A stretch of DNA of 64,000 nt from an uncultured virus (IMG/VR IMGVR_UViG_3300002038_000007) (taxonomy: Duplodnaviria > Heunggongvirae > Uroviricota > Caudoviricetes), in the IMG/VR virus record IMGVR_UViG_3300002038_000007, one strand, 5' to 3'. Made by a program: the position numbers and the translations under genes. Positions within the stretch are counted from its first letter, which is position 1. Each line of letters opens with the position of its first letter. Below the pieces are notes generated by a model. The model was not told the DNA's origin, ran no database searches, and worked only from the letters and a program-made list of their open reading frames with translations. Positions 2,784 through 47,160 of the stretch are shown one piece after another.

Positions 2784-4384
2784 TGGTTGCCCAGTCCGTT
2801 TTTGGGCCTGACGTCACTCAGATTGCTGATCCAACCGGCAACAAGAGAATTCCTATTGGCAGCTCCGCAACGGGGCCAAAAGAATTTGTTACGCCGGATC
2901 AAATTGCAGCGTTGGCGCTTGGCGGCACAACAGCCCTTGAGGGTTGGTTTAGCGTCAAAGAAACGCCAGGCAATGCCGCTGGCAATGGTGTGGCGGATGA
3001 CACGTCGGCCATTCAGGCAGTGATCGATGCGGCGCCTGAAGGTGCTGTTATTTACTTCCCTGTTGGCATTTACTCAGTCAACAGATTGAACGTGCCTTTT
3101 CAGAAGTCGCTTTCGTTCGTGGGCGCCAGTGTTCAAGGTTCTGTCCTTCGTTCGCGCTCGGTTGGCATCGACATTTTCCATTCCGATCGGGGCACAGGCA
3201 ATGCCCAGGACCGGTTCACCACCCAGCATTTCTATAAGAATTTACGGCTAGAACTGAACCTGCCTGAGAACGGCCCAGACACCGCGCCAAACTTCAACCG
3301 CTGCACCATTGAGGGCTTGGCGGTTGGCTGTGCGGCCATCGCTTACGAGACGTCAGCTCTTCCTTCCTCAGCAACGCCGGGCCAAATCGCCGTTTCCTGG
3401 CCTAATACGTTCGGCCGCGCTGAAGACATCATCGTTCAAGCCATCGACACCAATGATGGTGGCCGGATGAACTCTTGCGCGGTATTTATCTCCGGCTCGG
3501 CCTATGGCTGGGATTTCATGAACTTCGAGCTTCATGACATCTCTCATGGCTATGTTGAGACAGCGCCATTCATTCGCCGCTGCACGGTCAACACAAGTTC
3601 CAATACCTTGTCGCACTCGGGCGGGACCTATCCTAGCAATGCTCAGCTGACCGTTGCTCAGCACAGCGCAGAAGGTTCCCTGGCCTCTGGGGTAACGCGG
3701 TTCAGTGATTACTTTGCGCGGAATTCAAGCAGTGGCTCTTTGCAGCTAAGCACGTCGGCTGGCGGCGGAGCGGTCAATATCAGCAGCGCCGGCACCGCTG
3801 ACTTCTACATTTATGCTCGCGATCAGACTGCTGTGGTGGTGGCGCCTGACGGTTCCTCGATTATCAACTGGACCCAATATGGCGGTCGATCGGTGTTTAA
3901 CCTGTCGTCCCCGGAAAACAAGCTCATCCTGCGCTCGGACAGCTACCAGATTTCGGTTTCTCTTCTGGCCTGTCGGGCGTTCCCGAATAGCTCACGTCCG
4001 TTTGGCCTGACAAACAACTTCATCTGCATCTACTCGGAGAGCCCGCAAGGTCAGGCAACGCCTCCAAATCAGGCGCGCGATCCGTTTGTGATCATGGAAG
4101 GCCGTGTGGTGAATGTGAACGGCCTGCAAATCCGCGGCGCTGAACAGGGAACAGGGCGGCCAAGGATCGAGGTTGGCCAAACTGGCAGCCAAGTCTTCGG
4201 TATTCATATGATCAGCAACCTAAGCAACCAAGCCAACAGGCAGCCCGAGCTGGTGGTATCCGGCAATGGCAATCAGGTAGCGGCCACCATGCATCCTGCT
4301 TGTGTTGTCTCCAATACCGGGTCCAACAATAAAATCTTCGCTGTACGCGATGACAACGGCGCGACGGTTCTTGACACCTACTAA
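2783..4384 (+). CDS. Tailspike/depolymerase, pectate-lyase-like right-handed beta-helix
   Basis: AAGNGVADDTSAIQAVIDAA...VIYFPVGIY is the classical N-terminal pectate_lyase_3 motif. Confidence 0.8.
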   Translation: MVAQSVFGPDVTQIADPTGNKRIPIGSSATGPKEFVTPDQIAALALGGTTALEGWFSVKETPGNAAGNGVADDTSAIQAVIDAAPEGAVIYFPVGIYSVNRLNVPFQKSLSFVGASVQGSVLRSRSVGIDIFHSDRGTGNAQDRFTTQHFYKNLRLELNLPENGPDTAPNFNRCTIEGLAVGCAAIAYETSALPSSATPGQIAVSWPNTFGRAEDIIVQAIDTNDGGRMNSCAVFISGSAYGWDFMNFELHDISHGYVETAPFIRRCTVNTSSNTLSHSGGTYPSNAQLTVAQHSAEGSLASGVTRFSDYFARNSSSGSLQLSTSAGGGAVNISSAGTADFYIYARDQTAVVVAPDGSSIINWTQYGGRSVFNLSSPENKLILRSDSYQISVSLLACRAFPNSSRPFGLTNNFICIYSESPQGQATPPNQARDPFVIMEGRVVNVNGLQIRGAEQGTGRPRIEVGQTGSQVFGIHMISNLSNQANRQPELVVSGNGNQVAATMHPACVVSNTGSNNKIFAVRDDNGATVLDTY

Positions 4385-6910: not shown

Positions 6911-7855
6911 ATGAGTATGTTAGGACAAGCGAGCTATGTGAACTTTGGGGCGGGCGCTCCGCCACAGCCTACTGTTTTGTTTCGCGTGGTTGTTGAGTCT
7001 GATACCAATTTTGACCCTGTTCTTACAGGCTTCGGTGCGACTGACATCGATTGGGATTTTGGCGGTGGAGCTGCTAATATAACGGGCGGGTCTGGCACAC
7101 AATCGATCGCGATTACAGGCGCTCCGGTTATTGTTCAGGCCAGTACGTTCGCTACTCCAGCACCGTGGAGTCTTAATTTAAGAGCCGATAACGTGTCTCA
7201 AGTTCTTGAGATAAATGATCAAGTAACAGGCATTGATATTGCTAACAATAACGTTGGCGCGACTTCTGACTCAGTTCTTACAAACCTTCCGAATTTAATA
7301 GCGCTCGATATTAGGAACAACGGCTTTGCATCGAAAGATCTTACAGGGCTTCCTCTGTTAGATCAGCTGTTCATCCAAGGCAATAACATAACATCCTTGC
7401 CAAATTTCAATACAAGCCCTCTTTTGAGAATTTTAAACTTTGGATCAAACGGGTCGACTGGCGTTCTTGATATAAGCTCTCTTGATAAATTGCAGGTACT
7501 TCAGGGGGCATTTAATGACATAACAAACGTTGTGTTCCCAGCGACTTCAGTCATTTCTAACTTTCAAATGAATAATAATAAGTTGACTCCCATGGCAAGC
7601 ATTGCGGCATTTGCTGGTAGTTTGACGATATTTATTGTTTCAAATAATGATTTGCTCGCTTCTGAAATCGACGAAATTCTGATTGAATTGGACGCTGGTG
7701 GATTCACCGGCAATTTGCGCTATGACGCGCAGACCCCAACGGGGCCAAATGACGGGAACTCGTCGGCTTTTGACAGTAATAGGTCAGCCGCCGGCGCAAC
7801 TGCCCTATCTAATTTGCTTGGCGCGGGCGTTACCCGAACCGGGACGTATGCCTAA
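6911..7855 (+). CDS. Leucine-rich-repeat protein in virion gene cluster
   Basis: Repeated LxxLxLxxN units (LPNLIALDIRNN, LPLLDQLFIQGNN, LDKLQVLQGAFN). Confidence 0.75.
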   Translation: MSMLGQASYVNFGAGAPPQPTVLFRVVVESDTNFDPVLTGFGATDIDWDFGGGAANITGGSGTQSIAITGAPVIVQASTFATPAPWSLNLRADNVSQVLEINDQVTGIDIANNNVGATSDSVLTNLPNLIALDIRNNGFASKDLTGLPLLDQLFIQGNNITSLPNFNTSPLLRILNFGSNGSTGVLDISSLDKLQVLQGAFNDITNVVFPATSVISNFQMNNNKLTPMASIAAFAGSLTIFIVSNNDLLASEIDEILIELDAGGFTGNLRYDAQTPTGPNDGNSSAFDSNRSAAGATALSNLLGAGVTRTGTYA

Positions 7856-9747
7856 TGGTCTCTTCTATCGATCCCACACTTCCGATTGACGGCGTGCCGG
7901 CTGTCAAGAATGATCTGCGCAATAACCTGCAGGCCGCAAAGACCGAGATTGAAGCGCTGCAAAATGCTTTGATAGTTGACGCTGTTCGTGACTTTGGCTT
8001 ATCGCCTGCAAACTCTGACGTGCAAAATTCCACCGCTCTATTGGCGATGAGGGCAGACCTCCTTGCTCGTCAGACAGCTGAACCTGGTCGCCATTTTTAC
8101 ATCAAGATAGCGCCTGGCTTTTATCAGTATGAAACCAATTTCTGGCTGTATGGCCTAAAGCGTTTCACGCTAGAGGGATACGGGGCAACGCTGCAAAACA
8201 TCCATAATGGCGAAGGCCACGCCATGAGGTCGTTCAAGAGTGGCAATCCTTTCTCCAATGCCGCTCCGAGTCAGACGAACAACGGCGTCCTGAATGGCCA
8301 TCTGATCGACCCTGTCGTCGAGGGTCAGGCGGTCATTGTCTTGAAGACGCCAGCAGAGGCGGCAAATTATCAAATTGGATATGACGTCCTGCTGTTCGGA
8401 CTGAGTCAGCAAGCTCTTGGATTCCCGCCAAACACGTATTTTTTCGAATATCAAAAAGTTTTGTCGGTCAATGCCGGCACTGGCCAAGTGACCCTAGAGA
8501 AGGGGGCTCGATACACCTATAGAGATGATTGGGTCGAGTCTGGCGGAAGTAATGTAAAATGGGGACCTGCGCGTATGATCCCTATGACGTCAGCTTTCTA
8601 TGATTGGCCTGACTACATCAAATTCCAAGGCATCACCGTACTTAGAAATCCAAATAAAACCAATGACGGCTTGGAGATGGCAGGCAAATATGTGTCTTTC
8701 AAAGACTGCGACCTGCAAGAATGCACACAAACCTTTTCTAAGCTGTACCACTTCGAGAACTGCAAAGTCGAAGCGGTCCTTTGTGATAAATATAATGAAG
8801 ACGTTTTGTTTGATAACTGCGAACTCCATGATTTAGGCGATGGTCAGGGGACAAGGCGGGTACGCGTCAAAGGGGGCAGCATCTCCGAACCGGATGGCGA
8901 CAAGCCGTCTCTCGCATCAGAGACGGTCACGCTTGACGACGTCGAGCTGATATGCGGCACTGGCCATAATTTTGCAGTGATCAAGACGAGTGAAGGGACG
9001 CGACGGCAAGCCACGGTCGCTTTGCGCAACGTATCTATTGTTAATAGGTCGCCTACAGCTAAAGCCCTGATCGATCAGGGGGCGTTCGTTCAATTTGTTA
9101 TCCCACCTTTGGATGGTAGCGGTCGTCTGCTATTCCCGAAAGATACCGCCAGCTTCAACATTCTGCACCGCATAGGCGGGTATCGATCGCTGATCTTCAA
9201 AGAAGACGGGACAAAGGCGGGCCGTCTGGTGACGGTAACAGAGGACGCGACAAATTACATAGCTGAATACGAGTTCACGTCACCTCCTGTAGCTGGCGAA
9301 AATTTCGCAGTATTCGGCGGTCCTGACAATCTTGTAATGGATGGGACGCACGCCAAAGGCTTTCGCGTGCCGACATTTTTGAACCCGTTCGCGGTTCATA
9401 ATATTGACGAACAAATCGTTATCAATTTGGGCGACTACGACACGTCATTCGACACGTCAAACAGTGATGCATACTTCAGAATTCGATCAATAGAGGTTGA
9501 TATCGAGCCCAGCGCGCCTACAGGCGGCACGCTCAGCTTAAGGTTTGCTGGGTCTGGCATTGCCAATCAAGACTTTTCTCTGGACACCCCCGGATATCGA
9601 AAGATAGACCACGCGGCGGTTTTGGTCCTGGCTGGCGATGTCATCACACAAGCCCCTATTGGCCAATGGGTCCAACAGGCTCGATTAACGACTGATGCGC
9701 CTGCCAGCGGGCAGGTAAAGATCAATATTAGCAGGTTTAAAGTGTAA
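7855..9747 (+). CDS. Tailspike-like beta-helix protein
   Basis: DAVRDFGL...NSTAL...IKIAPGFY...LEGYGATL pattern; short N-terminal coiled-coil adaptor. Confidence 0.65.
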   Translation: MVSSIDPTLPIDGVPAVKNDLRNNLQAAKTEIEALQNALIVDAVRDFGLSPANSDVQNSTALLAMRADLLARQTAEPGRHFYIKIAPGFYQYETNFWLYGLKRFTLEGYGATLQNIHNGEGHAMRSFKSGNPFSNAAPSQTNNGVLNGHLIDPVVEGQAVIVLKTPAEAANYQIGYDVLLFGLSQQALGFPPNTYFFEYQKVLSVNAGTGQVTLEKGARYTYRDDWVESGGSNVKWGPARMIPMTSAFYDWPDYIKFQGITVLRNPNKTNDGLEMAGKYVSFKDCDLQECTQTFSKLYHFENCKVEAVLCDKYNEDVLFDNCELHDLGDGQGTRRVRVKGGSISEPDGDKPSLASETVTLDDVELICGTGHNFAVIKTSEGTRRQATVALRNVSIVNRSPTAKALIDQGAFVQFVIPPLDGSGRLLFPKDTASFNILHRIGGYRSLIFKEDGTKAGRLVTVTEDATNYIAEYEFTSPPVAGENFAVFGGPDNLVMDGTHAKGFRVPTFLNPFAVHNIDEQIVINLGDYDTSFDTSNSDAYFRIRSIEVDIEPSAPTGGTLSLRFAGSGIANQDFSLDTPGYRKIDHAAVLVLAGDVITQAPIGQWVQQARLTTDAPASGQVKINISRFKV

Positions 9748-18534: not shown

Positions 18535-19022
18535 TGAACGCTCGCCAACTGAAGGACAAGCTTCGCCGTGACATTCGCGACGAGATTCTTGCGATTGATC
18601 CTGACGCTGAGATTACCGATGTTGCCATTGTGTACTGGCAGGATATTGATTGGCGAAGCCATATCAATGGCATTTATTCGGCGATCGATCGGCGCTATGT
18701 AGACACAATGTCAGCTCGCACGATTAAGGCGATGCATCAGCGCATCGATGCTTTGGTAAGCGCCTATAGAGCTGATAAAGAGAACGTACTGGTTGATGAG
18801 ACAGATTACCGTGGTTTAACCATCTACCTCGACCGGGAGGGCGAAGGAGCGGGCGCCATTCAGCCCCAAGGCGGGAGCCCTATTGCTCTCGATGAGGCTT
18901 TTGACGCGGTCTATGAGCTCCTTGATGTGCAGGCGCGAAAGATAGAATCTATGCAACAAGAGCTGAACCGATTCAAGGTGGCTGCTCAGCAGTTAGCGTT
19001 GTCGCTGTCGGAACCGGGTTGA
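18534..19022 (+). CDS. Hypothetical protein with C-terminal coiled coil
   Basis: Coupled 162-aa ORF ending the structural operon. Confidence 0.55.
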   Translation: MNARQLKDKLRRDIRDEILAIDPDAEITDVAIVYWQDIDWRSHINGIYSAIDRRYVDTMSARTIKAMHQRIDALVSAYRADKENVLVDETDYRGLTIYLDREGEGAGAIQPQGGSPIALDEAFDAVYELLDVQARKIESMQQELNRFKVAAQQLALSLSEPG

Positions 19023-19048
19023 CGCATCGTCTCTGGCTCCATTATGGT
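19019..19048 (+). promoter_or_regulatory. Sigma70-type promoter, tRNA module 1
   Basis: TTGACG (19019-24), 18 nt, TATGGT (19043-48); leader ATG 7 nt downstream, so probably a leaderless transcript. Confidence 0.65.
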
Positions 19049-19054
19049 GAGCCA

Positions 19055-19126
19055 ATGATCACTAGCCGCACGTCTTTGTTACGACTCCTGACCGGACCAA
19101 CTTTCGGATCGGAGACTCGCGACTAG
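19055..19126 (+). CDS. Leu-sensing attenuator leader peptide MITSRTSLLRLLTGPTFGSETRD
   Basis: TTG TTA CGA CTC CTG at 19076-90, followed by antiterminator, terminator and three tRNA-Leu genes. Confidence 0.8.
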   Translation: MITSRTSLLRLLTGPTFGSETRD

Positions 19127-19153
19127 TTTTCTAGAACATCGTTGAGCAGGGCA

Positions 19154-19179
19154 GCCTCCGATCTTTCGGGGGCTTTTTT
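19154..19179 (+). terminator. Intrinsic terminator (attenuator 1)
   Basis: GCCTCCGA-TCTT-TCGGGGGC-TTTTTT. Confidence 0.85.
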
Positions 19180-19185
19180 GTGTTG

Positions 19186-19262
19186 GCTGGAGTAGCCCAA
19201 TTGGCAGAGGCACTGGTTTTAGGCACCAGTCAGTGTCGGTTCGAATCCGACCTCCAGTACCA
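19186..19262 (+). tRNA. tRNA-Leu(TAG), short variable loop
   Basis: Cloverleaf; CTGGT-TTTAGGC-ACCAG; encoded CCA. Confidence 0.9.
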
Positions 19263-19339
19263 GCCCAACTGGCGCAATTGGCAGACGCGGCAAGCTTAAA
19301 CCTTGTCTGTTCTCGGTTCGATCCCGAGGTTGGGCACCA
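19263..19339 (+). tRNA. tRNA-Leu(TAA), short variable loop
   Basis: GCAAG-CTTAAAC-CTTGT; CCA. Confidence 0.9.
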
Positions 19340-19340
19340 T

Positions 19341-19417
19341 GCCGAGGTGACGCAATTGGTAGACGTGCTGGCCTCAAAAACCAGATGGTGAGGGTTCGAC
19401 TCCCTCCCTCGGCACCA
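19341..19417 (+). tRNA. tRNA-Leu(CAA), short variable loop
   Basis: CTGGC-CTCAAAA-ACCAG; CCA. Confidence 0.9.
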
Positions 19418-19423
19418 ATCTTC

Positions 19424-19453
19424 TTGACATGATAAATTCCGTCACTCTATATT
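19424..19453 (+). promoter_or_regulatory. Sigma70-type promoter, tRNA module 2
   Basis: TTGACA (19424-29), 18 nt, TATATT (19448-53). Confidence 0.75.
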
Positions 19454-19458
19454 TCCGA

Positions 19459-19534
19459 CGTGCTGTGGAGCAGTGGCTAGCTCGTCAGGCTCATAACCTG
19501 AAGGTCGTCGGTTCGAGTCCGACCAGCGCAACCA
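19459..19534 (+). tRNA. Initiator tRNA-fMet(CAT)
   Basis: C1:A72 mismatch; TCAGG-CTCATAA-CCTGA; CCA. Confidence 0.9.
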
Positions 19535-19551
19535 ACATGAGGTGTATCGAC

Positions 19552-19617
19552 GTGAACGCAATCTACTATTCGTGCTCATGGTTTAGTTCCGAAAAGGGGC
19601 TGCTGACGCACGTGTAA
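19552..19617 (+). CDS. Tyr/Ser/Cys/Trp/Phe-sensing leader peptide MNAIYYSCSWFSSEKGLLTHV
   Basis: GAGGTG RBS then GTG (in-frame ATG also at 19537); nine consecutive control codons TAC TAT TCG TGC TCA TGG TTT AGT TCC. Confidence 0.85.
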   Translation: MNAIYYSCSWFSSEKGLLTHV

Positions 19618-19647
19618 ACGCTTGATCACCATACACCGGCAGTCAGA

Positions 19648-19681
19648 GGTCCCCTCGGAGAAATCCCTGGGGGCCTTTTTT
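19648..19681 (+). terminator. Intrinsic terminator (attenuator 2)
   Basis: GGTCCCC-TCGGAGAAATCCCT-GGGGGCC-TTTTTT. Confidence 0.85.
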
Positions 19682-19689
19682 GTGTCAAC

Positions 19690-19764
19690 GCCTCTGTAGC
19701 TGAGAAGGATTAGCGCCGGTTTGAAGAACCGGAGAGGGCGGCTCGATACCGTCTGGGGGCACCA
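19690..19764 (+). tRNA. tRNA-Phe(GAA)
   Basis: CCGGT-TTGAAGA-ACCGG; CCA. Confidence 0.88.
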
Positions 19765-19784
19765 AACAAGGAGAGTAAAGCGAA

Positions 19785-19857
19785 GGGTAGGAGCCAGGGC
19801 AGTGGGCACGGTCTGTAAAACCGACGCCAGAGGGTTCGAGACCTTCCCTACCCACCA
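19785..19857 (+). tRNA. tRNA-Tyr(GTA), short variable loop
   Basis: CGGT-CTGTAAA-ACCG; acceptor GGGTAGG/CCTACCC; CCA. Confidence 0.85.
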
Positions 19858-19858
19858 T

Positions 19859-19932
19859 GCGGGATTCGTCTAATGGCAAGACAGCGGTCTCCAAAACCGA
19901 CAATGGAGGTTCGATTTCTCCATCCCGTGCCA
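19859..19932 (+). tRNA. tRNA-Trp(CCA)
   Basis: CGGT-CTCCAAA-ACCG; G73 CCA. Confidence 0.9.
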
Positions 19933-19938
19933 AATTAA

Positions 19939-20024
19939 GGATGGTTGGCAGAGTGGTAATGCAGCGCCCTGCTAAGGCGTACAAGGGCAACCTTGCGTTG
20001 GTTCGATCCCAACACCATCCGCCA
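19939..20024 (+). tRNA. tRNA-Ser(GCT)
   Basis: GCGCC-CTGCTAA-GGCGT; long variable arm; CCA. Confidence 0.92.
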
Positions 20025-20025
20025 T

Positions 20026-20101
20026 GATCCGGTAACGCAGAGGCCGACGTGCCTGGCTGCAAACCAGGAATACGCCGGTTCGACTCCGGCCCGGATCTCC
20101 A
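20026..20101 (+). tRNA. tRNA-Cys(GCA)
   Basis: CCTGG-CTGCAAA-CCAGG; U73 CCA. Confidence 0.9.
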
Positions 20102-20102
20102 A

Positions 20103-20189
20103 GGAGGAGAGGTGTATTGGCGGCATAACCGGTCCTGAAAACCGTCCGACCGCAAGGTCGTGTGGGTTCGATTCCCACCTCCTCCGCCA
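20103..20189 (+). tRNA. tRNA-Ser(TGA)
   Basis: CGGT-CCTGAAA-ACCG (C at position 33); long variable arm; CCA. Confidence 0.85.
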
Positions 20190-20199
20190 ACATTTTTGA

Positions 20200-20229
20200 T
20201 TGACAGTCTTATCAACTTATGCGTAACAG
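20200..20229 (+). promoter_or_regulatory. Probable promoter, tRNA module 3
   Basis: TTGACA at 20200-05 within imperfect palindrome TTGACAGTCTTATCAA; weak -10 (TAACAG). Confidence 0.55.
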
Positions 20230-20243
20230 TCATTATCTCTCTC

Positions 20244-20381
20244 ATGGCGAGACCAGCGATGACTATATTTTGCACACGAACAGTCGTCACAATAATCGGG
20301 CAGACCAGCGTCGTCCGTACCAATAAACGCGCCATGACGATGAAGACCATTCGAAATATCCGGCGACATAGACGCGGCTAA
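20244..20381 (+). CDS. Arg/His/Lys/Met/Thr/Ile/Val/Asn-rich leader peptide, 45 aa
   Basis: MARPAMTIFCTRTVVTIIGQTSVVRTNKRAMTMKTIRNIRRHRRG; 35 of 45 residues match the downstream tRNA set. Confidence 0.75.
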   Translation: MARPAMTIFCTRTVVTIIGQTSVVRTNKRAMTMKTIRNIRRHRRG

Positions 20382-20389
20382 TCAACTAG

Positions 20390-20465
20390 CTCCGCGTCGC
20401 CAACTGGACAGGCAGCCAGTCTTCTAAACTGGTTTGTGTGGGTTCGAATCCCGCCGCGGAGTCCA
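20390..20465 (+). tRNA. tRNA-Arg(TCT)
   Basis: CCAGT-CTTCTAA-ACTGG; CCA. Confidence 0.9.
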
Positions 20466-20466
20466 T

Positions 20467-20543
20467 GGTGGCCGTAGCTTAGTGGTAAAAGCGCTGGATT
20501 GTGACTCCAGAGATCGTCGGTTCAAATCCGATCGGCCACCCCA
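20467..20543 (+). tRNA. tRNA-His(GTG) with G-1:C73
   Basis: CTGGA-TTGTGAC-TCCAG; G-GTGGCCG/CGGCCAC-C-CCA. Confidence 0.92.
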
Positions 20544-20549
20544 ATCACC

Positions 20550-20625
20550 CCGCTCGTAGCTCAACAGGAAGAGTCGATGAGTCCTAATCATCAGGTTGCA
20601 AGTTCGAGTCCTGCCGGGAGCCCCA
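20550..20625 (+). tRNA. tRNA-Arg(CCT), acceptor stem defective (possible pseudogene)
   Basis: GATGA-GTCCTAA-TCATC; 5' strand GCTCG versus 3' CGGGAGC looks like a 2-nt deletion. Confidence 0.65.
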
Positions 20626-20630
20626 ATCAT

Positions 20631-20706
20631 GCCCATGTAGCTCAACTGGATGAGCAGCGGTCTACGAAGCCGCGTGATGGAGGTTCGAGTCCTCTCATGG
20701 GCTCCA
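20631..20706 (+). tRNA. tRNA-Arg(ACG)
   Basis: GCGGT-CTACGAA-GCCGC; CCA. Confidence 0.9.
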
Positions 20707-20747
20707 TCCACGAAACACGTCCACGAAAAGATCAATTCGTGGATATC

Positions 20748-20821
20748 GGGCCACAAGCATAGTGGCGATGCGTCGGCCTCTTAACCCGATGAGCACAGTT
20801 CAATTCTGTGGTGGCCTTCCA
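20748..20821 (+). tRNA. tRNA-Lys(CTT)
   Basis: TCGGC-CTCTTAA-CCCGA; CCA. Confidence 0.85.
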
Positions 20822-20846
20822 GAAAGGAGAATGTGACGTTTAATGA

Positions 20847-20920
20847 TCCTGCGTAGCTCAATGGTAGAGCGGGTCGCTCATAACGATTTGACGGTGGTTC
20901 GATTCCACCCGCAGGTACCA
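20847..20920 (+). tRNA. tRNA-Met or Ile2 (CAT)
   Basis: GGTCG-CTCATAA-CGATT; CCA; Met versus Ile2 not resolvable by eye. Confidence 0.85.
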
Positions 20921-20921
20921 C

Positions 20922-20998
20922 GCCCTCGTAACTCAGTGGTCAGAGTAGCTGTTTTGTAATCAGCCGGTCGCGGGTTCGAATCCTCGCCGAGGGCTCCA
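20922..20998 (+). tRNA. tRNA-Thr(TGT)
   Basis: GCTGT-TTTGTAA-TCAGC; CCA. Confidence 0.9.
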
Positions 20999-21001
20999 TT
21001 T

Positions 21002-21075
21002 GCTGGCGTAGCTCAATAGTAGAGCATTCGGCTGATAACCGGACGACGGTGGGGCAGAACCATCCGCCAGTACCA
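21002..21075 (+). tRNA. tRNA-Ile(GAT)
   Basis: TTCGG-CTGATAA-CCGGA; atypical T-loop GGCAGAA; CCA. Confidence 0.85.
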
Positions 21076-21076
21076 T

Positions 21077-21154
21077 AGAAGGGTAGCTCAGCCTGGCCAG
21101 AGCTGCGGTGTTACATACCGCGAGTCGTCGGTTCGAATCCGGCCCCTTCTACCA
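21077..21154 (+). tRNA. tRNA-Val(TAC)
   Basis: GCGGT-GTTACAT-ACCGC; CCA. Confidence 0.9.
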
Positions 21155-21156
21155 GT

Positions 21157-21234
21157 TCCAGGCTGGGGGAATGGTAGACCCGGCTGGCTGTTAACCAGCG
21201 TCTTTTCTCGGTTCGAGTCCGAGGCCTGGAGCCA
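21157..21234 (+). tRNA. tRNA-Asn(GTT)
   Basis: GCTGG-CTGTTAA-CCAGC; CCA. Confidence 0.9.
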
Positions 21235-21247
21235 ATTTTTCTGATGA

Positions 21248-21323
21248 GGGTGTGGGGCCGCACGGCGACGGCAAGATCCTTTTAAGTTCTAGGCAGCAGG
21301 TTCGACTCCTGTCACACCCTCCA
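21248..21323 (+). tRNA. tRNA-Lys(TTT)
   Basis: AGATC-CTTTTAA-GTTCT; acceptor GGGTGTG/CACACCC; CCA. Confidence 0.85.
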
Positions 21324-21603
21324 ATGCTCGGCACATGAGGATGACACGGCGCGACGGTTTTCTTCTGCCGTTGACGAGACGTTCGATGTAGTCTGGGGAG
21401 TAACCTAGAAGTTCGCCGACAGGCGCATAATCGCTTTTGATGCCGGGATGACCTGTGTCGTAATTATGTTCTAAAAACCATTCTCGAAAATTGAATTGCT
21501 CTGGACCGCCCGGTTCCTCGCCGGGCTCGATATCGTCGTATGCCCCACCGGGTCGCCCGCTCGGCTGTTCGGTAGGGTTGGTCGCGGCTGGTTGCGGTTG
21601 CAT
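21289..21603 (-). CDS. XRE-type HTH protein with Gln/Pro/Ala/Glu/Gly/Asp-rich N-terminus (putative autorepressor of tRNA module 4)
   Basis: AAGGA RBS; VGELLGYSPDYIERLVNGRRKPS HTH; last gene of the minus-strand tRNA operon. Confidence 0.8.
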   Translation of the reverse strand: MQPQPAATNPTEQPSGRPGGAYDDIEPGEEPGGPEQFNFREWFLEHNYDTGHPGIKSDYAPVGELLGYSPDYIERLVNGRRKPSRRVILMCRALEGVTGVEPAA

Positions 21604-21622
21604 GACGGTTTCCTTCGAGGGT

Positions 21623-21699
21623 TGGCAGGTCGGGCGGGATTCGAACCCACGATCCTGAATTCAAAGTCCAGAGCATTAGGCCAACTATGCTACCGACCA
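21623..21699 (-). tRNA. tRNA-Gln(TTG)
   Basis: Reverse complement: CTGGA-CTTTGAA-TTCAG; CCA. Confidence 0.9.
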
Positions 21700-21711
21700 G
21701 CAAGAGGGGAT

Positions 21712-21786
21712 TGGCAGCCGCACTAGGACTTGAACCTAGAACATCCACATTCAGAGTGTGGCGCTCTACCATTGAGCTATACGGCA
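21712..21786 (-). tRNA. tRNA-Gln(CTG)
   Basis: CCACA-CTCTGAA-TGTGG; CCA. Confidence 0.9.
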
Positions 21787-21796
21787 TTACCAAGAA

Positions 21797-21870
21797 TGGA
21801 GCGGGAGACGGGAATCGAACCCGTGTCATCAGTTTGGAAGACTGCGGCTCTACCATTGAGCTACACCCGC
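21797..21870 (-). tRNA. tRNA-Gly(TCC)
   Basis: CAGT-CTTCCAA-ACTG; GCGGG acceptor, U73 CCA. Confidence 0.92.
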
Positions 21871-21923
21871 TTAGCTTCCGCCGCCTCCTGAGTAGCTGCC
21901 CCATATGATAAGGCGGCGGAATT

Positions 21924-22001
21924 TGGAGCTGCTGACCGGATTCGAACCGGCATTTTCCAGAGTGAAAATCTGGAGTCCTAGTCCTGTTAGACGACAGCAG
22001 C
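21924..22001 (-). tRNA. tRNA-Glu(TTC)
   Basis: CCAGA-TTTTCAC-TCTGG; CCA. Confidence 0.9.
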
Positions 22002-22006
22002 AAAAC

Positions 22007-22082
22007 TGGCGAGCGTAAGGGGATTCGAACCCCTGTTGTCGGATAGACAATCCGAAGTCCTAGGCCTCTGGACGATACGCCC
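22007..22082 (-). tRNA. tRNA-Asp(GTC)
   Basis: TCGGA-TTGTCTA-TCCGA; CCA. Confidence 0.9.
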
Positions 22083-22087
22083 GTTGT

Positions 22088-22163
22088 TGGAACCGCCAAC
22101 CGGATTTGAACCGGTGTTTTCAGGTTGAGAACCTGATGTCCTTGACCGCTAGACGATGGCGAT
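22088..22163 (-). tRNA. tRNA-Glu(CTC)
   Basis: TCAGG-TTCTCAA-CCTGA; CCA. Confidence 0.9.
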
Positions 22164-22164
22164 T

Positions 22165-22240
22165 TGGTCAGGGTGGCTGGCACTGCCCCAGCGACCCCCT
22201 GCTTCCAAGGCAGGTACTCTGCTAGCTGAGCTACACCCTG
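22165..22240 (-). tRNA. tRNA-Pro(TGG)
   Basis: CCTGC-CTTGGAA-GCAGG; atypical T-loop GGCAGTG; CCA. Confidence 0.88.
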
Positions 22241-22241
22241 T

Positions 22242-22316
22242 TGGTGGATCTGGCAGGATTCGAACCCGCAACCTTCGCTGTGCAAAAGCGCTGCTCTCCC
22301 GTTGAGCTACAAACCC
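22242..22316 (-). tRNA. tRNA-Ala(TGC)
   Basis: CGCT-TTTGCAC-AGCG; G3:U70; CCA. Confidence 0.92.
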
Positions 22317-22381: not shown

Positions 22382-22630
22382 CTAAGTATCTAGCTCTATC
22401 GTCACCATCATACCTTCAATCGGCAGGATCACAGGCGGGCTCTTAGGCACACGCCACAGCGCGCCCCTGCTATTCAAAATGAACCAGAACCCATCGACGA
22501 ATTTGTAGGTGGTGCCATCGCGGCATGGTGGCTTTGGGAGAGGCGTTGGGGGCGATGCGAGCGACGCGGCGCAGACTGGTATGGATGCGAAACCGATGGG
22601 AGCGGATCGAAGGAAGTCTCGACGGTTCAT
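22382..22630 (-). CDS. Small hypothetical protein with Tat-like N-terminus
   Basis: MNRRDFLR; ATGA overlap with upstream gene. Confidence 0.5.
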   Translation of the reverse strand: MNRRDFLRSAPIGFASIPVCAASLASPPTPLPKPPCRDGTTYKFVDGFWFILNSRGALWRVPKSPPVILPIEGMMVTIELDT

Positions 22631-23346
22631 GGGCTGTTATTAAAACAGTAAATGCATCGGTCTAATCCAATGGCGATCTCTAACACAGCAACGTCTTTGT
22701 TTTTTATTTGCGTAGGAAAGTCGGTTCGCTTTGAAATGGAGCACAGCTCCATCCACTTTTCGCCATTGTTGACTTCGACGTCCATTGTCAAGGTCGAGTA
22801 AGAGGGCAGCCGGTCGGATTCAATAATCCTTGTTGGCAATCCAAGGGCTTGATGAAACATCGCCTCAGCGTGTGGCCAAAATGACCCGTGGTAGTCATTT
22901 CCGCTATCGGCAGAGTAAGCACATTGAAATTCGAGCTGGTAGAATTCCTTCAGTCTCATATGCTTCACGGGCTGGATTTGCTCTCGTCGGAAGGACTTCC
23001 CGTATTGCCAGCAGCAGTATGGCAAACGGACTTTGTCATGTGACTCTAGTCGCTGCATCATATGAGCATAAGACGACGCGGTTGTTTCGGGGCGAAGGAT
23101 TAACCAGTGATCATGCTCGTCGGCGACGCGTTGATCAAAGACATCGGTCTCTGCGTCATAGGCGTCAGACAACAAGTTGACCGGCATAAGCAATGGTGCT
23201 TCGATTTGTTCAAATGACCATGCCTGATTCATGCCTAACAGGCGATCACGAACTGATATCGAAAAGAAGTCGATCAACCAGTTTCTGGTCTTGATGTCCT
23301 TCTCTGACCATGTCACCAGCCCGTTGATATCGAAAGTATTATCCAT
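22627..23346 (-). CDS. Class II aminoacyl-tRNA synthetase catalytic core (GlyRS alpha2-like), no anticodon-binding domain
   Basis: LRPETT, motif 2 QYGKSFRRE...RLKEFYQLEFQ, motif 3 LEIAIGLDR; only 239 aa. Confidence 0.85.
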   Translation of the reverse strand: MDNTFDINGLVTWSEKDIKTRNWLIDFFSISVRDRLLGMNQAWSFEQIEAPLLMPVNLLSDAYDAETDVFDQRVADEHDHWLILRPETTASSYAHMMQRLESHDKVRLPYCCWQYGKSFRREQIQPVKHMRLKEFYQLEFQCAYSADSGNDYHGSFWPHAEAMFHQALGLPTRIIESDRLPSYSTLTMDVEVNNGEKWMELCSISKRTDFPTQIKNKDVAVLEIAIGLDRCIYCFNNSP

Positions 23347-35038: not shown

Positions 35039-36097
35039 TCACCCCTTCCTCCATTTCTGCGCCGCCTCAGCAGCTTCTCGAACATGTGATCTACGACGAT
35101 GGGCATAGCGCCTGGTCGTCGAGAGCGATGAGTGGTGCAACGCATCCTGCACCAATGCCACGTCACCCGTAGCGTCCATCAGGGATTGGGCGAAGGTGTG
35201 GCGAAGATCATGGAAACGGACATCCGGTAGACCTGCATCGCATCGCGATCGTTCCCAAATGCCCTTGATGGATCTGATCTGGGCGCCGTCTCGGGTAAAC
35301 ACCGGCCCGAGATCCTTTGGGCCTATGCGGGTCAGGATTTCCATCGCCCATTCTGTAAGCTCCACCGGATTTGACTTTTTCCCTTTTCCGATCGGAACAA
35401 TCTTTTGTTTTTCGAGATCGACATCCCGCCATTGCAAAGAGAATATAGGTGCTCGCCTAAGCCCGGTGGCGAGGGCGAACTCAACGATATCAGCAAGCCA
35501 GGGAGGGCAGGCGTTGATCAAAAGCCGCTGCTCACTCGTCGATAGATTGCGCTCAACCGTTTCCGCCTCAGGCCTCATCAAGGCTTCCCAGGAGACCGAC
35601 GGAACGTCTTCCCATTGCCAAAGACGCTGGGCTTTTCTCATAGCGCCCCGGAGCACTGCCAGGCGACGGTTTATCGTCGCGTTCGTGGGCAGCTTTGGCT
35701 TGTTCGATCGTCGATCCATCACGACCTGCTGACGAGATCGGTTATAAACCGGAGTCGTTCGCCATTTTGTGACGGCTTCGGAAATGCGAGATGTGGTCAA
35801 ATCGGCAATACGAGAGTGATCTCCGAATTCATCAGTCATGGTCTCCAAGTGCTGACCGATGGTTCGCGCCCATGCCAGACCTTCAGCGTGCTCCGTCCAA
35901 TATTTTTCCATCATGTTAGAGAATGTATGTTGGCCCGCCGCTTCGGCTGCGTCTTCTGCTTTGAGCCTTTGTTCCAAGGCCTGGACGTCCCGCTTGCGCG
36001 GGTAGTCTTTCGCTTTGACCGTTTGCTGACAGCGCGTGCCATCTCCCCGATAGAATCGGATGATCCAATTTCCGTTTTTTCTTTTATAGACCGGCAT
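35039..36097 (-). CDS. int: Tyrosine recombinase (phage integrase)
   Basis: ATGLRR, RFHDLRHT, LHHSSLSTTRRY catalytic motifs. Confidence 0.93.
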   Translation of the reverse strand: MPVYKRKNGNWIIRFYRGDGTRCQQTVKAKDYPRKRDVQALEQRLKAEDAAEAAGQHTFSNMMEKYWTEHAEGLAWARTIGQHLETMTDEFGDHSRIADLTTSRISEAVTKWRTTPVYNRSRQQVVMDRRSNKPKLPTNATINRRLAVLRGAMRKAQRLWQWEDVPSVSWEALMRPEAETVERNLSTSEQRLLINACPPWLADIVEFALATGLRRAPIFSLQWRDVDLEKQKIVPIGKGKKSNPVELTEWAMEILTRIGPKDLGPVFTRDGAQIRSIKGIWERSRCDAGLPDVRFHDLRHTFAQSLMDATGDVALVQDALHHSSLSTTRRYAHRRRSHVREAAEAAQKWRKG

Positions 36098-46307: not shown

Positions 46308-46654
46308 GTGAGTAATCCTATACAGCTTGAAATCGGAGAAGGCAAGGTTTTGGCTAAAAAGCCATATAACTTCGAAGACATCACCACGGCCGTTGGTCAC
46401 AAATTCGGGCACACGCTTTGTCAGGTTAAGAGATGCCGGAATGCTCAGAACCGAGGCACCGCGAGAACGCGGTGTGCGATGATCTATGCGGTGAAGCGCA
46501 TCACGGGCGCTCGATCACATGAGCTAGCGGATAGCGCAAAGTTTGACCGCGGGTCTTCTGCGATCCGTATGGCCTTGAAAAAGGCCAAGGGACTGATGGA
46601 GACCGATGCCAAATTCGCTGAGGAGATCAACAGCGTAATCNNNNNNNNGCATGA
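46308..46654 (+). CDS. DnaA C-terminal-like HTH hypothetical protein (3' end in N gap)
   Basis: AAGGAG RBS; helical pattern; interrupted by Ns at 46641-48. Confidence 0.4.
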
Positions 46655-47160
46655 GTGGTTTTAGCCCAGTTGACCGCGAGCTGACCTATTTTGAGCATCT
46701 CCTGAAAAAGCTCGGCGATGACTTTGACACCACGGATATGGAGGCGGTTGACGCTCTTCTTGAAGGTGAAACTGACCTTTTGGAGATGGCGCAAAGCAGC
46801 CTGGACGAGATCGACTTTATTGAAGCGTTGCAAATCGGCGTTGAGACCAAGGCCAAAGCTCTGATGGAACGCTCGGCGAAGTATAAAGCCCAGATCGGAA
46901 CGATCAAAGCGGTCTTGGAAAAAATTACTGTCAAGATGCCTGATCAAAAACTCAGGCTGGACAGCGCTACTTGCTACATGCGCAAGGGATCTCAGTCGGT
47001 GGTTATCGTCGATCAGGACAAGATACCCTTCGACCTGATGCGCACCAAAGATCCAGAGCCGGACAAGACTGCCATCGCCGAACTTCTTAAAGCGGAAAAG
47101 GCAGTAGACGGCTGTACGCTCAGCAATGGCGCACCATCATTTCAAATAAAAAGGAAATAA
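46651..47160 (+). CDS. Siphovirus Gp157-like protein
   Basis: LEGETDL...SVVIVDQDKIP...PDKTAIAELLK...VDGCTLSNG. Confidence 0.8.
   Translation: MSGFSPVDRELTYFEHLLKKLGDDFDTTDMEAVDALLEGETDLLEMAQSSLDEIDFIEALQIGVETKAKALMERSAKYKAQIGTIKAVLEKITVKMPDQKLRLDSATCYMRKGSQSVVIVDQDKIPFDLMRTKDPEPDKTAIAELLKAEKAVDGCTLSNGAPSFQIKRK

Follow-up and report, generated by a model that had tools for sequence, protein, structure and literature searches.

The tRNA array and the short ORF ahead of module 3

We analyzed a 64,000-nucleotide (nt) stretch of DNA from an uncultured virus of the Caudoviricetes (IMG/VR record IMGVR_UViG_3300002038_000007), referred to below as the window. It contains an array of transfer RNA (tRNA) genes at positions 19186-22316, in which 26 tRNAs were called by ARAGORN and three more by Rfam. 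Going by anticodon labels, these 29 tRNAs cover all 20 amino acids. Three modules of the array lie on the + strand, and the third is the main subject of this work. In module 3, a 45-codon open reading frame (ORF) is followed on the same strand by 11 tRNAs, ten of them detected by ARAGORN and one by Rfam. The coordinates of the ORF, of the tRNAs, and of the other features are listed in Table 1.

The specificities of the 11 tRNAs are exactly R, H, K, M, T, I, V, and N. A reading of the sequence made before the present analysis had claimed that 35 of the 45 residues of the peptide belong to these eight specificities, and the residue count together with the tRNA calls bore this out (R9 H1 K2 M4 T8 I5 V4 N2). 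When all 45-codon windows of the 64 kb were examined in six frames, at least 35 in-set residues were reached by only 2 of 127,732, both overlapping the ORF (mean 16.3). Among the 294 ATG-initiated ORFs of 30-70 amino acids (aa), the module 3 ORF ranked first by in-set fraction (0.778 vs. 0.667 for the next one). When the peptide was compared with ten tRNA sets, its own set ranked first (z 3.0). Leu codons, whose tRNAs belong to module 1, are absent from the ORF. The match is not merely the result of an A-rich first codon position, since 12 of the 21 codons without initial A remained in-set in a count on the codon list. With standard wobble pairing, the anticodons of the module read some 24-27 of the 35 in-set codons directly. 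The five codons ahead of the final Gly codon are CGG CGA CAT AGA CGC (R R H R R; 20361-20375, + strand), and they mirror the order of the first four tRNAs (Arg, His, Arg, Arg). The ORF is probably a genuine codon-matched leader of module 3. The 45-aa peptide had no Pfam match, and the protein search returned neither a homologue nor any other candidate.

It could also be supposed that the + strand does not code here, the region being a promoter, a spacer, or a processing leader with a chance ORF, or that the real gene is the codon-aligned antisense ORF at 20220-20369 (50 aa, rich in Cys, His, and Asp). An ORF of such length is not rare in a 200-nt gap (about 0.1 by a rough estimate), and the - strand has both an open antisense frame and a weak promoter-like site (9/12 matches). 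The frame is open, however, because the + strand ORF has no TTA, CTA, or TCA codons. A chance ORF would leave its extreme composition, matching the downstream tRNAs, unaccounted for; the antisense ORF had no family or homologue in Pfam and the protein search, and its orientation is against the direction of the array. We consider both versions very improbable.

Table 1. Positions of modules, leaders, tRNAs, and sequence motifs of the tRNA array (window coordinates).
Feature	Position	Strand	Remarks
Module 1	19019-19185	+	Promoter-like site, leader, terminator, then three tRNA-Leu
Module 1 promoter-like site	19019-19048	+	TTGACG-18-TATGGT, ends 6 nt ahead of ATG 19055
Module 1 leader	19055-19126	+	MITSRTSLLRLLTGPTFGSETRD; four different Leu codons
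Module 1 terminator hairpin	19153-19174	+	Followed by T run
Module 2	19424-19689	+	Promoter-like site, tRNA-Met, leader, terminator, then tRNA Phe, Tyr-like (GTA), Trp, Ser, Cys, Ser
Initiator-like tRNA-Met (CAT)	19459-19534	+	C1/A72 unpaired in fold; A11:U24 by eye
Module 2 leader	19537-19617	+	MRCIDVNAIYYSCSWFSSEKGLLTHV; ATG 2 nt after CCA end of initiator-like tRNA
Module 2 terminator hairpin	19652-19673	+	Followed by T run
Extra tRNA, anticodon read as GTA (Tyr)	19785-19854	+	Rfam 28.3 bits, just below the cut-off of 29 bits
TTGACA, -35-like hexamer at head of module 3	20200-20205	+	18-nt spacer to TAACAG (20224-29); weak evidence
CATTAT, alternative -10-like hexamer	20231-20236	+	7 nt ahead of ATG 20244
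Module 3 leader ORF	20244-20381	+	45 codons, MARPAMTIFCTRTVVTIIGQTSVVRTNKRAMTMKTIRNIRRHRRG, then TAA (20379-81)
GACGCGG, leader arm of alternative hairpin	20371-20377	+	Exact complement of 20392-98
tRNA-Arg(TCT)	20390-20465	+	ARAGORN; Rfam 45.3 bits
CCGCGTC, acceptor positions 3-7 (5' strand) and nt 8-9 of tRNA-Arg(TCT)	20392-20398	+	Partner of 20371-77
tRNA-His(GTG)	20468-20543	+	ARAGORN, Rfam
tRNA-Arg(CCT)	20550-20625	+	ARAGORN, Rfam
tRNA-Arg(ACG)	20631-20706	+	ARAGORN, Rfam
tRNA-Lys(CTT)	20748-20821	+	ARAGORN, Rfam
tRNA, anticodon CAT (elongator Met or Ile2)	20847-20920	+	ARAGORN, Rfam
tRNA-Thr(TGT)	20922-20998	+	ARAGORN, Rfam
Extra tRNA, tRNA-Ile(GAT)	21002-21076	+	T loop unusual; not called by ARAGORN; Rfam 52.3 bits (21002-21072); cloverleaf and anticodon read from fold
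tRNA-Val(TAC)	21077-21154	+	ARAGORN, Rfam
tRNA-Asn(GTT)	21157-21234	+	ARAGORN
tRNA-Lys(TTT), last of module 3	21248-21323	+	ARAGORN, Rfam
Extra tRNA, anticodon read from fold as TGG (Pro)	22168-22240	-	Rfam 48.7 bits

Sister leaders of modules 1 and 2

The first two modules of the phage also have leaders rich in the amino acids of the tRNAs that follow, and both leaders end ahead of a hairpin with a T run. In leader 2, the segment YYSCSWFSS was the sole window made up of only F, Y, W, S, and C among 127,948 nine-codon windows in six frames. The promoter-like site of module 2, TTGACA-18-TATATT (11/12), is the best of the region. In both modules, a leader segment able to pair with the 5' arm of the terminator is present. 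The antiterminator duplex of module 1 was calculated at -18.8 kcal/mol vs. -18.5 kcal/mol for the terminator, and 13 of 1000 shuffles were as good; for module 2 the values were -19.3 vs. -22.0 kcal/mol, with 30 of 1000 shuffles as good. The antiterminators were seen in duplex tests and not in plain minimum free energy folds. Since these competing duplexes beat most shuffles, modules 1 and 2 look like classical leader-peptide attenuators ahead of tRNA genes.

The tRNA-Met that precedes leader 2 comes directly after the promoter-like site of module 2 and has hallmarks of initiator tRNAs (unpaired C1/A72 and A11:U24). If processed at the 3' end, this tRNA would leave leader 2 with a nearly leaderless mRNA.

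Start region and missing terminator of module 3

The sequence-only reading had also stated that module 3 lacks a U-tailed hairpin, that only 8 nt separate the stop codon from the first tRNA, and that no clear Shine-Dalgarno (SD) sequence is visible. All three statements agreed with our results. A terminator scan of 20190-20389 gave no terminator-like site, and no Rfam family was detected in the same interval at E up to 1. The gap comprises 20382-89, directly ahead of the tRNA-Arg(TCT) start at 20390. No SD motif precedes either of the two ATG codons. The lack of an SD motif was considered as an argument against translation and rejected: only 20 of the 39 long ORFs of the phage are preceded by even a lenient SD motif, so its absence here says little.

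From the terminator scan, the output of module 3 is not an intrinsic terminator. The combination of an intrinsic terminator and a competing antiterminator, present in modules 1 and 2, was not found in module 3, in which the only alternative pairing found involves the 5' acceptor strand of tRNA-Arg(TCT).

Two candidate promoters were noticed at the head of the module. The 18 nt between TTGACA and TAACAG equal the promoter spacing in both upstream modules, but with 45 copies of TTGACA on the two strands of the window, the copy at module 3 is weak evidence. The position of CATTAT relative to the ATG suggests, by analogy, a leaderless or near-leaderless mRNA, like that of module 1 (TATGGT, 6 nt, ATG) and those of the leaders of the uncultured phage LR745206 described below (TATATA, 6-7 nt, ATG).

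The absence of an intrinsic terminator behind a leader that is clearly codon-matched brings to mind Rho-dependent attenuation of the tnaC or mgtL/corL type. The naked leader would then serve as the Rho entry site, slow, stalled, or queued ribosomes would occlude it, and fast translation would lead to termination within the array. Because a structured tRNA begins 8 nt after the stop codon, a ribosome terminating there has no free RNA beyond it. The 54 nt ahead of the ATG are pyrimidine-rich (C/G 2.0) and end with CUCUCUC at the start codon, and this stretch is kept in a relative. The ORF itself, on the other hand, is neither C-rich nor G-poor (C/G 1.12, G 24%), and the other two modules of the same phage use ordinary terminators. 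As the sole output of module 3, this type of attenuation appears unlikely, yet it is a serious rival of the mechanism proposed below.

Predicted pairing between the leader end and tRNA-Arg(TCT)

The end of the ORF was said to be complementary to the 5' end of the first tRNA and to point to a different coupling mechanism. The complementarity of GACGCGG and CCGCGTC proved exact. The hairpin formed by the two segments was calculated at -13.3 kcal/mol, and their duplex at -15.1 kcal/mol. For all 19 array tRNAs examined with their own upstream sequences, this 7-nt complement was the longest, the others reaching no more than 6 nt. In the fold model with the leader attached, the alternative fold was favored over the native acceptor stem by 3.1 kcal/mol, and the same comparison for the first tRNAs of modules 1 and 2 gave 0.1 and 1.4 kcal/mol. 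The cloverleaf of tRNA-Arg(TCT) was restored in the model when the RNA was masked up to 20384, which corresponds to the cover given by a ribosome stopped on the final codons.

The evidence for the claimed coupling is thus weak: the absence of a terminator stood, while the pairing with the tRNA was only borderline above chance and the predicted misfold did not discriminate. The statistics for both are given below, where the proposed mechanism is weighed.

Conservation in relatives

Relatives were public contigs aligned to the window, and they were compared mainly by the extents of the alignments. In the more distant relatives (runs X2, X4, and X5), only the array was in common, and the flanking genes were not. 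According to the alignment extents, the junction between the 3' third of the ORF and tRNA-Arg is kept in two of them (20322-20530 in X2 and 20355-20545 in X4). In X2, 25 nt around the start codon (20228-20252) are kept as well, with flanks that do not align. The 69 nt between its two kept parts (20253-20321, exactly 23 codons) are skipped or replaced. The retention of the start and of the tRNA-proximal end fits selection on both parts of the ORF. Elsewhere in the array, the acceptor stem of tRNA-Thr is preserved in relatives by paired changes at 20925/20991 and 20926/20990, and in run X1, from which the window probably derives, a synonymous TGT>TGC change was seen in leader 2.

These data bear on the idea that the leader is a relic, a former attenuator which has lost its terminator and its output, so that the module would be expressed constitutively or by read-through from module 2 even if translation of the ORF may continue. 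The failure of the ORF's middle part to align in a relative would fit such decay, as would the weak pairing statistics and the terminator-like hairpins present in all the other leaders examined. Decay, however, would have eroded both the 45 open codons and the in-set bias that continues through the last codons. The terminator-less junction is common to the diverged relatives of runs X2 and X4, and the parts kept are the start region and the 3' third. We regard a relic as improbable, though it too is a serious rival.

A blastn search against phage records returned similarity at the tRNA level only. Similarity over 42-54 nt to the 3' half of tRNA-Thr(TGT) was seen in two metagenome contigs, L016 (about 925-975, - strand; 3001-3051 on the reverse complement) and L017 (2994-3035). 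They were rejected as related arrays, the similarity being limited to about 50 nt of tRNA-Thr with no tRNA detected by ARAGORN. These stretches could be attachment-site remnants, the window having an integrase gene of its own.

The same design in other phages

Two uncultured huge phages, LR745206 (seven leaders at loci L002-L005) and LR756504 (six leaders at loci L007, L011, and L012), have tRNA modules headed by short ORFs that are rich in the amino acids of their own tRNAs and are followed by a GC hairpin with a T run. Thus, the leader MTTTQQIQQQQINQTD precedes three tRNA-Gln, and MKTKLKYKR precedes four tRNA-Lys. Mixed modules are headed by MTTMNLNMTMNLTLNVVNITLCNIRPTEGSDLFREIVM (array Asn, Arg, Leu, Val, Ile, Thr, Met), MKTIAMIIRMRIIRPKMLG (Arg, Ile, and Met tRNAs), and MKTVNTNIAIVEIAVIGGAEEGVMGVYCLNSKTS (Glu, Ala, Ile, Val, and Gly tRNAs). 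Several leaders of LR745206 have a common start M-K/T-T and an upstream motif ending with TTTTTAATATATAAGAA, 6-7 nt ahead of the ATG. This motif looks like a phage promoter that would give leaderless mRNAs.

The match between leaders and tRNA sets was evaluated by permutation. For ten visually chosen leaders (three of the window, seven of LR745206), the own tRNA set ranked first of ten in each case, and none of 200,000 permutations reached the observed sum. With LR745206 alone, only the identity permutation reached it (1/5040). An automated picker, which took the longest ATG-initiated ORF ahead of a hairpin and T run heading a tRNA module, yielded 11 units (one probably false), and the observed sum was reached by 0 of 500,000 permutations. 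As a negative control, 16 annotated coding sequences (CDS) beside tRNAs in Sinorhizobium phage Phosso were used, and they showed no enrichment for the amino acids of the neighboring tRNAs.

Similar ORFs were found in Caulobacter and Brevundimonas phages. The product of gp136 of Caulobacter phage C2 (locus L014, 2693-2812; 39 aa, MTRIHTTLTTAKPASTGALTLASWPASSKPLLRHSAVLA) is annotated as 'hypothetical protein', and 33 of its 38 residues fall within the eight specificities of the next 12 tRNAs. In the GC-rich DNA of C2, this count was reached by 47 of 49,518 windows. Its counterparts in the Caulobacter Bertelyvirus phages are RB23 gp135, CcrSC gp144, and CcrBL9 gp149. The ORF is identical at 118 of 120 nt in CcrSC and CcrBL9, and the whole matched region is about 87% identical; of the two changes, one is synonymous and the other is T>P, which is still in-set. 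A weak terminator-like site follows the C2 ORF. A possible pairing of this leader with tRNA-Pro was rejected (227 of 1000 shuffles as good). In Brevundimonas phage Domovoi (locus L015, reverse strand, about 7790-7900), an ORF MRRNCRRSPPPPVASPWKVSCNNRHQAGEAP with PPPP, followed by a GC hairpin and T5, lies directly ahead of two tRNA-Pro; the choice of its frame is uncertain in this GC-rich DNA.

Judged by composition, the codon-matched leader design recurs ahead of tRNA modules in unrelated large phages. The term 'sensor peptide' that had been given to the module 3 ORF is well supported by the extreme composition match, by the two sister leaders with the same logic, and by this recurrence.

The comparison also bears on another possible role of the ORF, a small basic protein acting in trans, such as an arginine-rich RNA-binding peptide, whose likeness to the tRNA set would be coincidental. 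Its C-terminus, KTIRNIRRHRRG, is arginine-rich, as are known RNA-binding motifs of this kind, and small ORFs are common in phage tRNA regions, as in Phosso. Such a role would leave unexplained the first two-thirds of the peptide, rich in T, I, V, and M, and the match to the exact downstream set, which is the maximum for the window. The same logic is seen in the two sister leaders and in other phages, ordinary CDS beside tRNAs have no such bias, and neither a homologue nor a Pfam family was found for the peptide. A trans-acting protein is therefore highly improbable.

Proposed mechanism and its weighing

As the best explanation of the whole, we tentatively propose that the module 3 ORF may be translated as a gauge of decoding, read out by the position of the ribosome on its last codons; the chances of this we put somewhat below even. 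The step that would be gated is possibly, though doubtfully, the folding or processing of the first tRNA. More speculative is a complete switch of tRNA maturation in which the ribosome position would decide between the native acceptor stem and the leader hairpin, with folding and RNase P processing, and thereby insulation from Rho, as the output. We infer the translation of the ORF, its promoter, and the entire output step.

The read-out would be set by a ribosome on R-R-H-R-R-G-stop, which ends 8 nt ahead of tRNA-Arg(UCU). If this end were free of ribosomes, GACGCGG could base-pair with the nascent tRNA at its 5' acceptor strand, and native folding and RNase P cleavage would be delayed; the naked leader would also remain on the transcript, possibly open to Rho. 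If Arg and His codons were decoded slowly, the ribosome held on the terminal codons would cover GACGCGG, the tRNA would fold, and the array would be produced. A stall on R R H R R, covering GACGCGG and favoring the native fold, would thus have the right sign for homeostasis. The Rho and folding routes could be combined, because RNase P cleavage of the folded first tRNA would remove the leader and insulate the array from Rho already loaded.

Several observations weigh against this proposal or parts of it. The 7-bp complementarity, although real, barely exceeds what chance would give (p about 0.05-0.10): 46 of 1000 shuffles gave an equal or better duplex, and dinucleotide shuffling of the upstream 30-60 nt produced a Watson-Crick complement of at least 7 nt in 122-195 of 2000 cases. 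Misfolding of the acceptor stem was also predicted with 35% of shuffled upstream sequences and for 10 of the 19 array tRNAs in their natural context, one of which misfolded even alone. Since the misfold is so common in shuffles and in other tRNAs, the fold prediction alone proves nothing, and we rejected it as evidence. An upstream partner that could sequester GACGCGG was also rejected, 398 of 1000 shuffles being as good. Having no such partner, GACGCGG would be left free by a ribosome stalled early, which favors the inhibitory pairing and gives the wrong sign for T, I, V, M, N, and K. In addition, the hairpin with GACGCGG can directly gate the first tRNA alone.

The match is also imperfect at the codon level. 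The leader has no AGG, the codon that tRNA-Arg(CCT) reads, and by standard wobble pairing, four Val codons (GTC), three Thr codons (ACC), and one Arg codon (CGG) are poorly read by TAC, TGT, and ACG, respectively. The promoter of module 3 is weak or uncertain, neither candidate reaching the threshold of the promoter scan (9/12 matches). No related array was found through the flanking proteins and DNA patterns in viral, metagenome, and genome-collection contigs. Finally, all the other leaders examined, in the window, in LR745206 and LR756504, and in the Caulobacter phages, have at least a terminator-like hairpin, and module 3 could be a degenerate copy of a terminator-bearing leader.

Relation to known systems

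Leader-peptide attenuators are known from enterobacterial amino-acid operons (the multivalent thrL and ilvL, and also trpL, hisL, leuL, and pheL) and from pheM-pheST. The module 3 leader resembles those of the thrL/ilvL type in being a short 5' ORF whose codons are supported by the downstream genes, with several amino acids per leader and, in the proposed mechanism, ribosome speed as the signal. It differs in that the controlled genes would be tRNAs rather than enzymes, in having no terminator and antiterminator (modules 1 and 2 have both), and in its length of 45 codons, with cognate codons spread throughout instead of forming a single run.

Rho-dependent leader ORFs are represented by tnaC of the E. 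coli tnaCAB operon and by mgtL/corL of Salmonella. As in these, the leader ORF of module 3 has no intrinsic terminator, and the ribosome position near the ORF end is proposed to decide on access to the downstream RNA. Unlike them, it has no evident rut-like C-rich tract in or after the ORF, as judged from base composition and with no dedicated rut predictor, and a tRNA follows immediately. The T-box riboswitch binds uncharged tRNA directly and needs no ORF. It reports tRNA status to control translation-related genes, as module 3 would, whereas module 3 has an ORF and, as stated above, its head matches no Rfam family.

The leaders of LR745206 and LR756504 and those of the gp136 type in Bertelyvirus share with module 3 a same-strand short ORF that heads the module and is enriched in its amino acids. 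Closest to module 3 among them is an LR745206 leader of 38 codons, whose set is N, R, L, V, I, T, and M. The units of these phages have a hairpin with a T run (weak in Caulobacter phages), whereas the module 3 ORF runs to 8 nt from the tRNA without a hairpin. By its layout and composition, module 3 is a terminator-less variant of codon-matched tRNA leaders.

Phage tRNA genes are usually treated as passive supplements to codon usage or as spares against host tRNA-cutting enzymes. A leader spelled in the amino acids of its own tRNAs implies that the phage may gauge its capacity for decoding and produce tRNAs as they are needed, exerting feedback on the tRNA pool. If module 3 is functional, tRNA output can be placed under the control of translation without classical attenuation. 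Full-text literature searches, judged from result listings and the opening parts of abstracts, gave no published account of leader-peptide control of tRNA genes; within the same limits, a maturation switch, if true, would be a coupling of translation to tRNA biogenesis not previously described. With gp136, Caulobacter phage C2 offers a culturable system for testing the whole class of leaders.

Other features of the array and the window

The array tRNAs are sorted roughly by the first codon base across modules. TNN codons predominate among those read by modules 1 and 2, and ANN codons among those read by module 3, which also covers CAY, CGN, and GTN; the codons of the - strand block are GNN together with CCN and CAR. 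There is no codon-matched leader ahead of this block (21623-22316; Ala, Pro, Glu, Asp, Glu, Gly, Gln, Gln), which is preceded by an ORF of 82 aa (22382-22630) whose N-terminus is twin-arginine-like.

Within module 3, the 41-nt spacer between tRNA-Arg(ACG) and tRNA-Lys(CTT) contains a perfect 8-bp inverted repeat (20720-20743, TCCACGAA ... TTCGTGGA) that lacks a T run on the + strand. In one relative, both the spacer and the tRNA behind it are replaced. In the 25-nt spacer ahead of the second CAT tRNA of the array, AAAGGAG is followed by a start-stop ATG TGA (20823-20836), the distance from the SD-like motif to the ATG being only 1 nt.

The gene content of the window is that of a large phage and includes tail-fibre proteins, RNA ligase, integrase (35039-36097), primase/helicase, and exonuclease. 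A protein resembling aminoacyl-tRNA synthetases (22627-23346, - strand) had 37-50% identity to proteins of jumbo and huge phages, namely Sinorhizobium phage Phosso, the uncultured LR745206 and LR756504, Xanthomonas phage XbC2, and Brevundimonas and Caulobacter phages. The phages nearest by this protein had no synteny to the window at the tRNA array. A run of eight N (46641-46648) lies just upstream of the ORF at 46651-47160.

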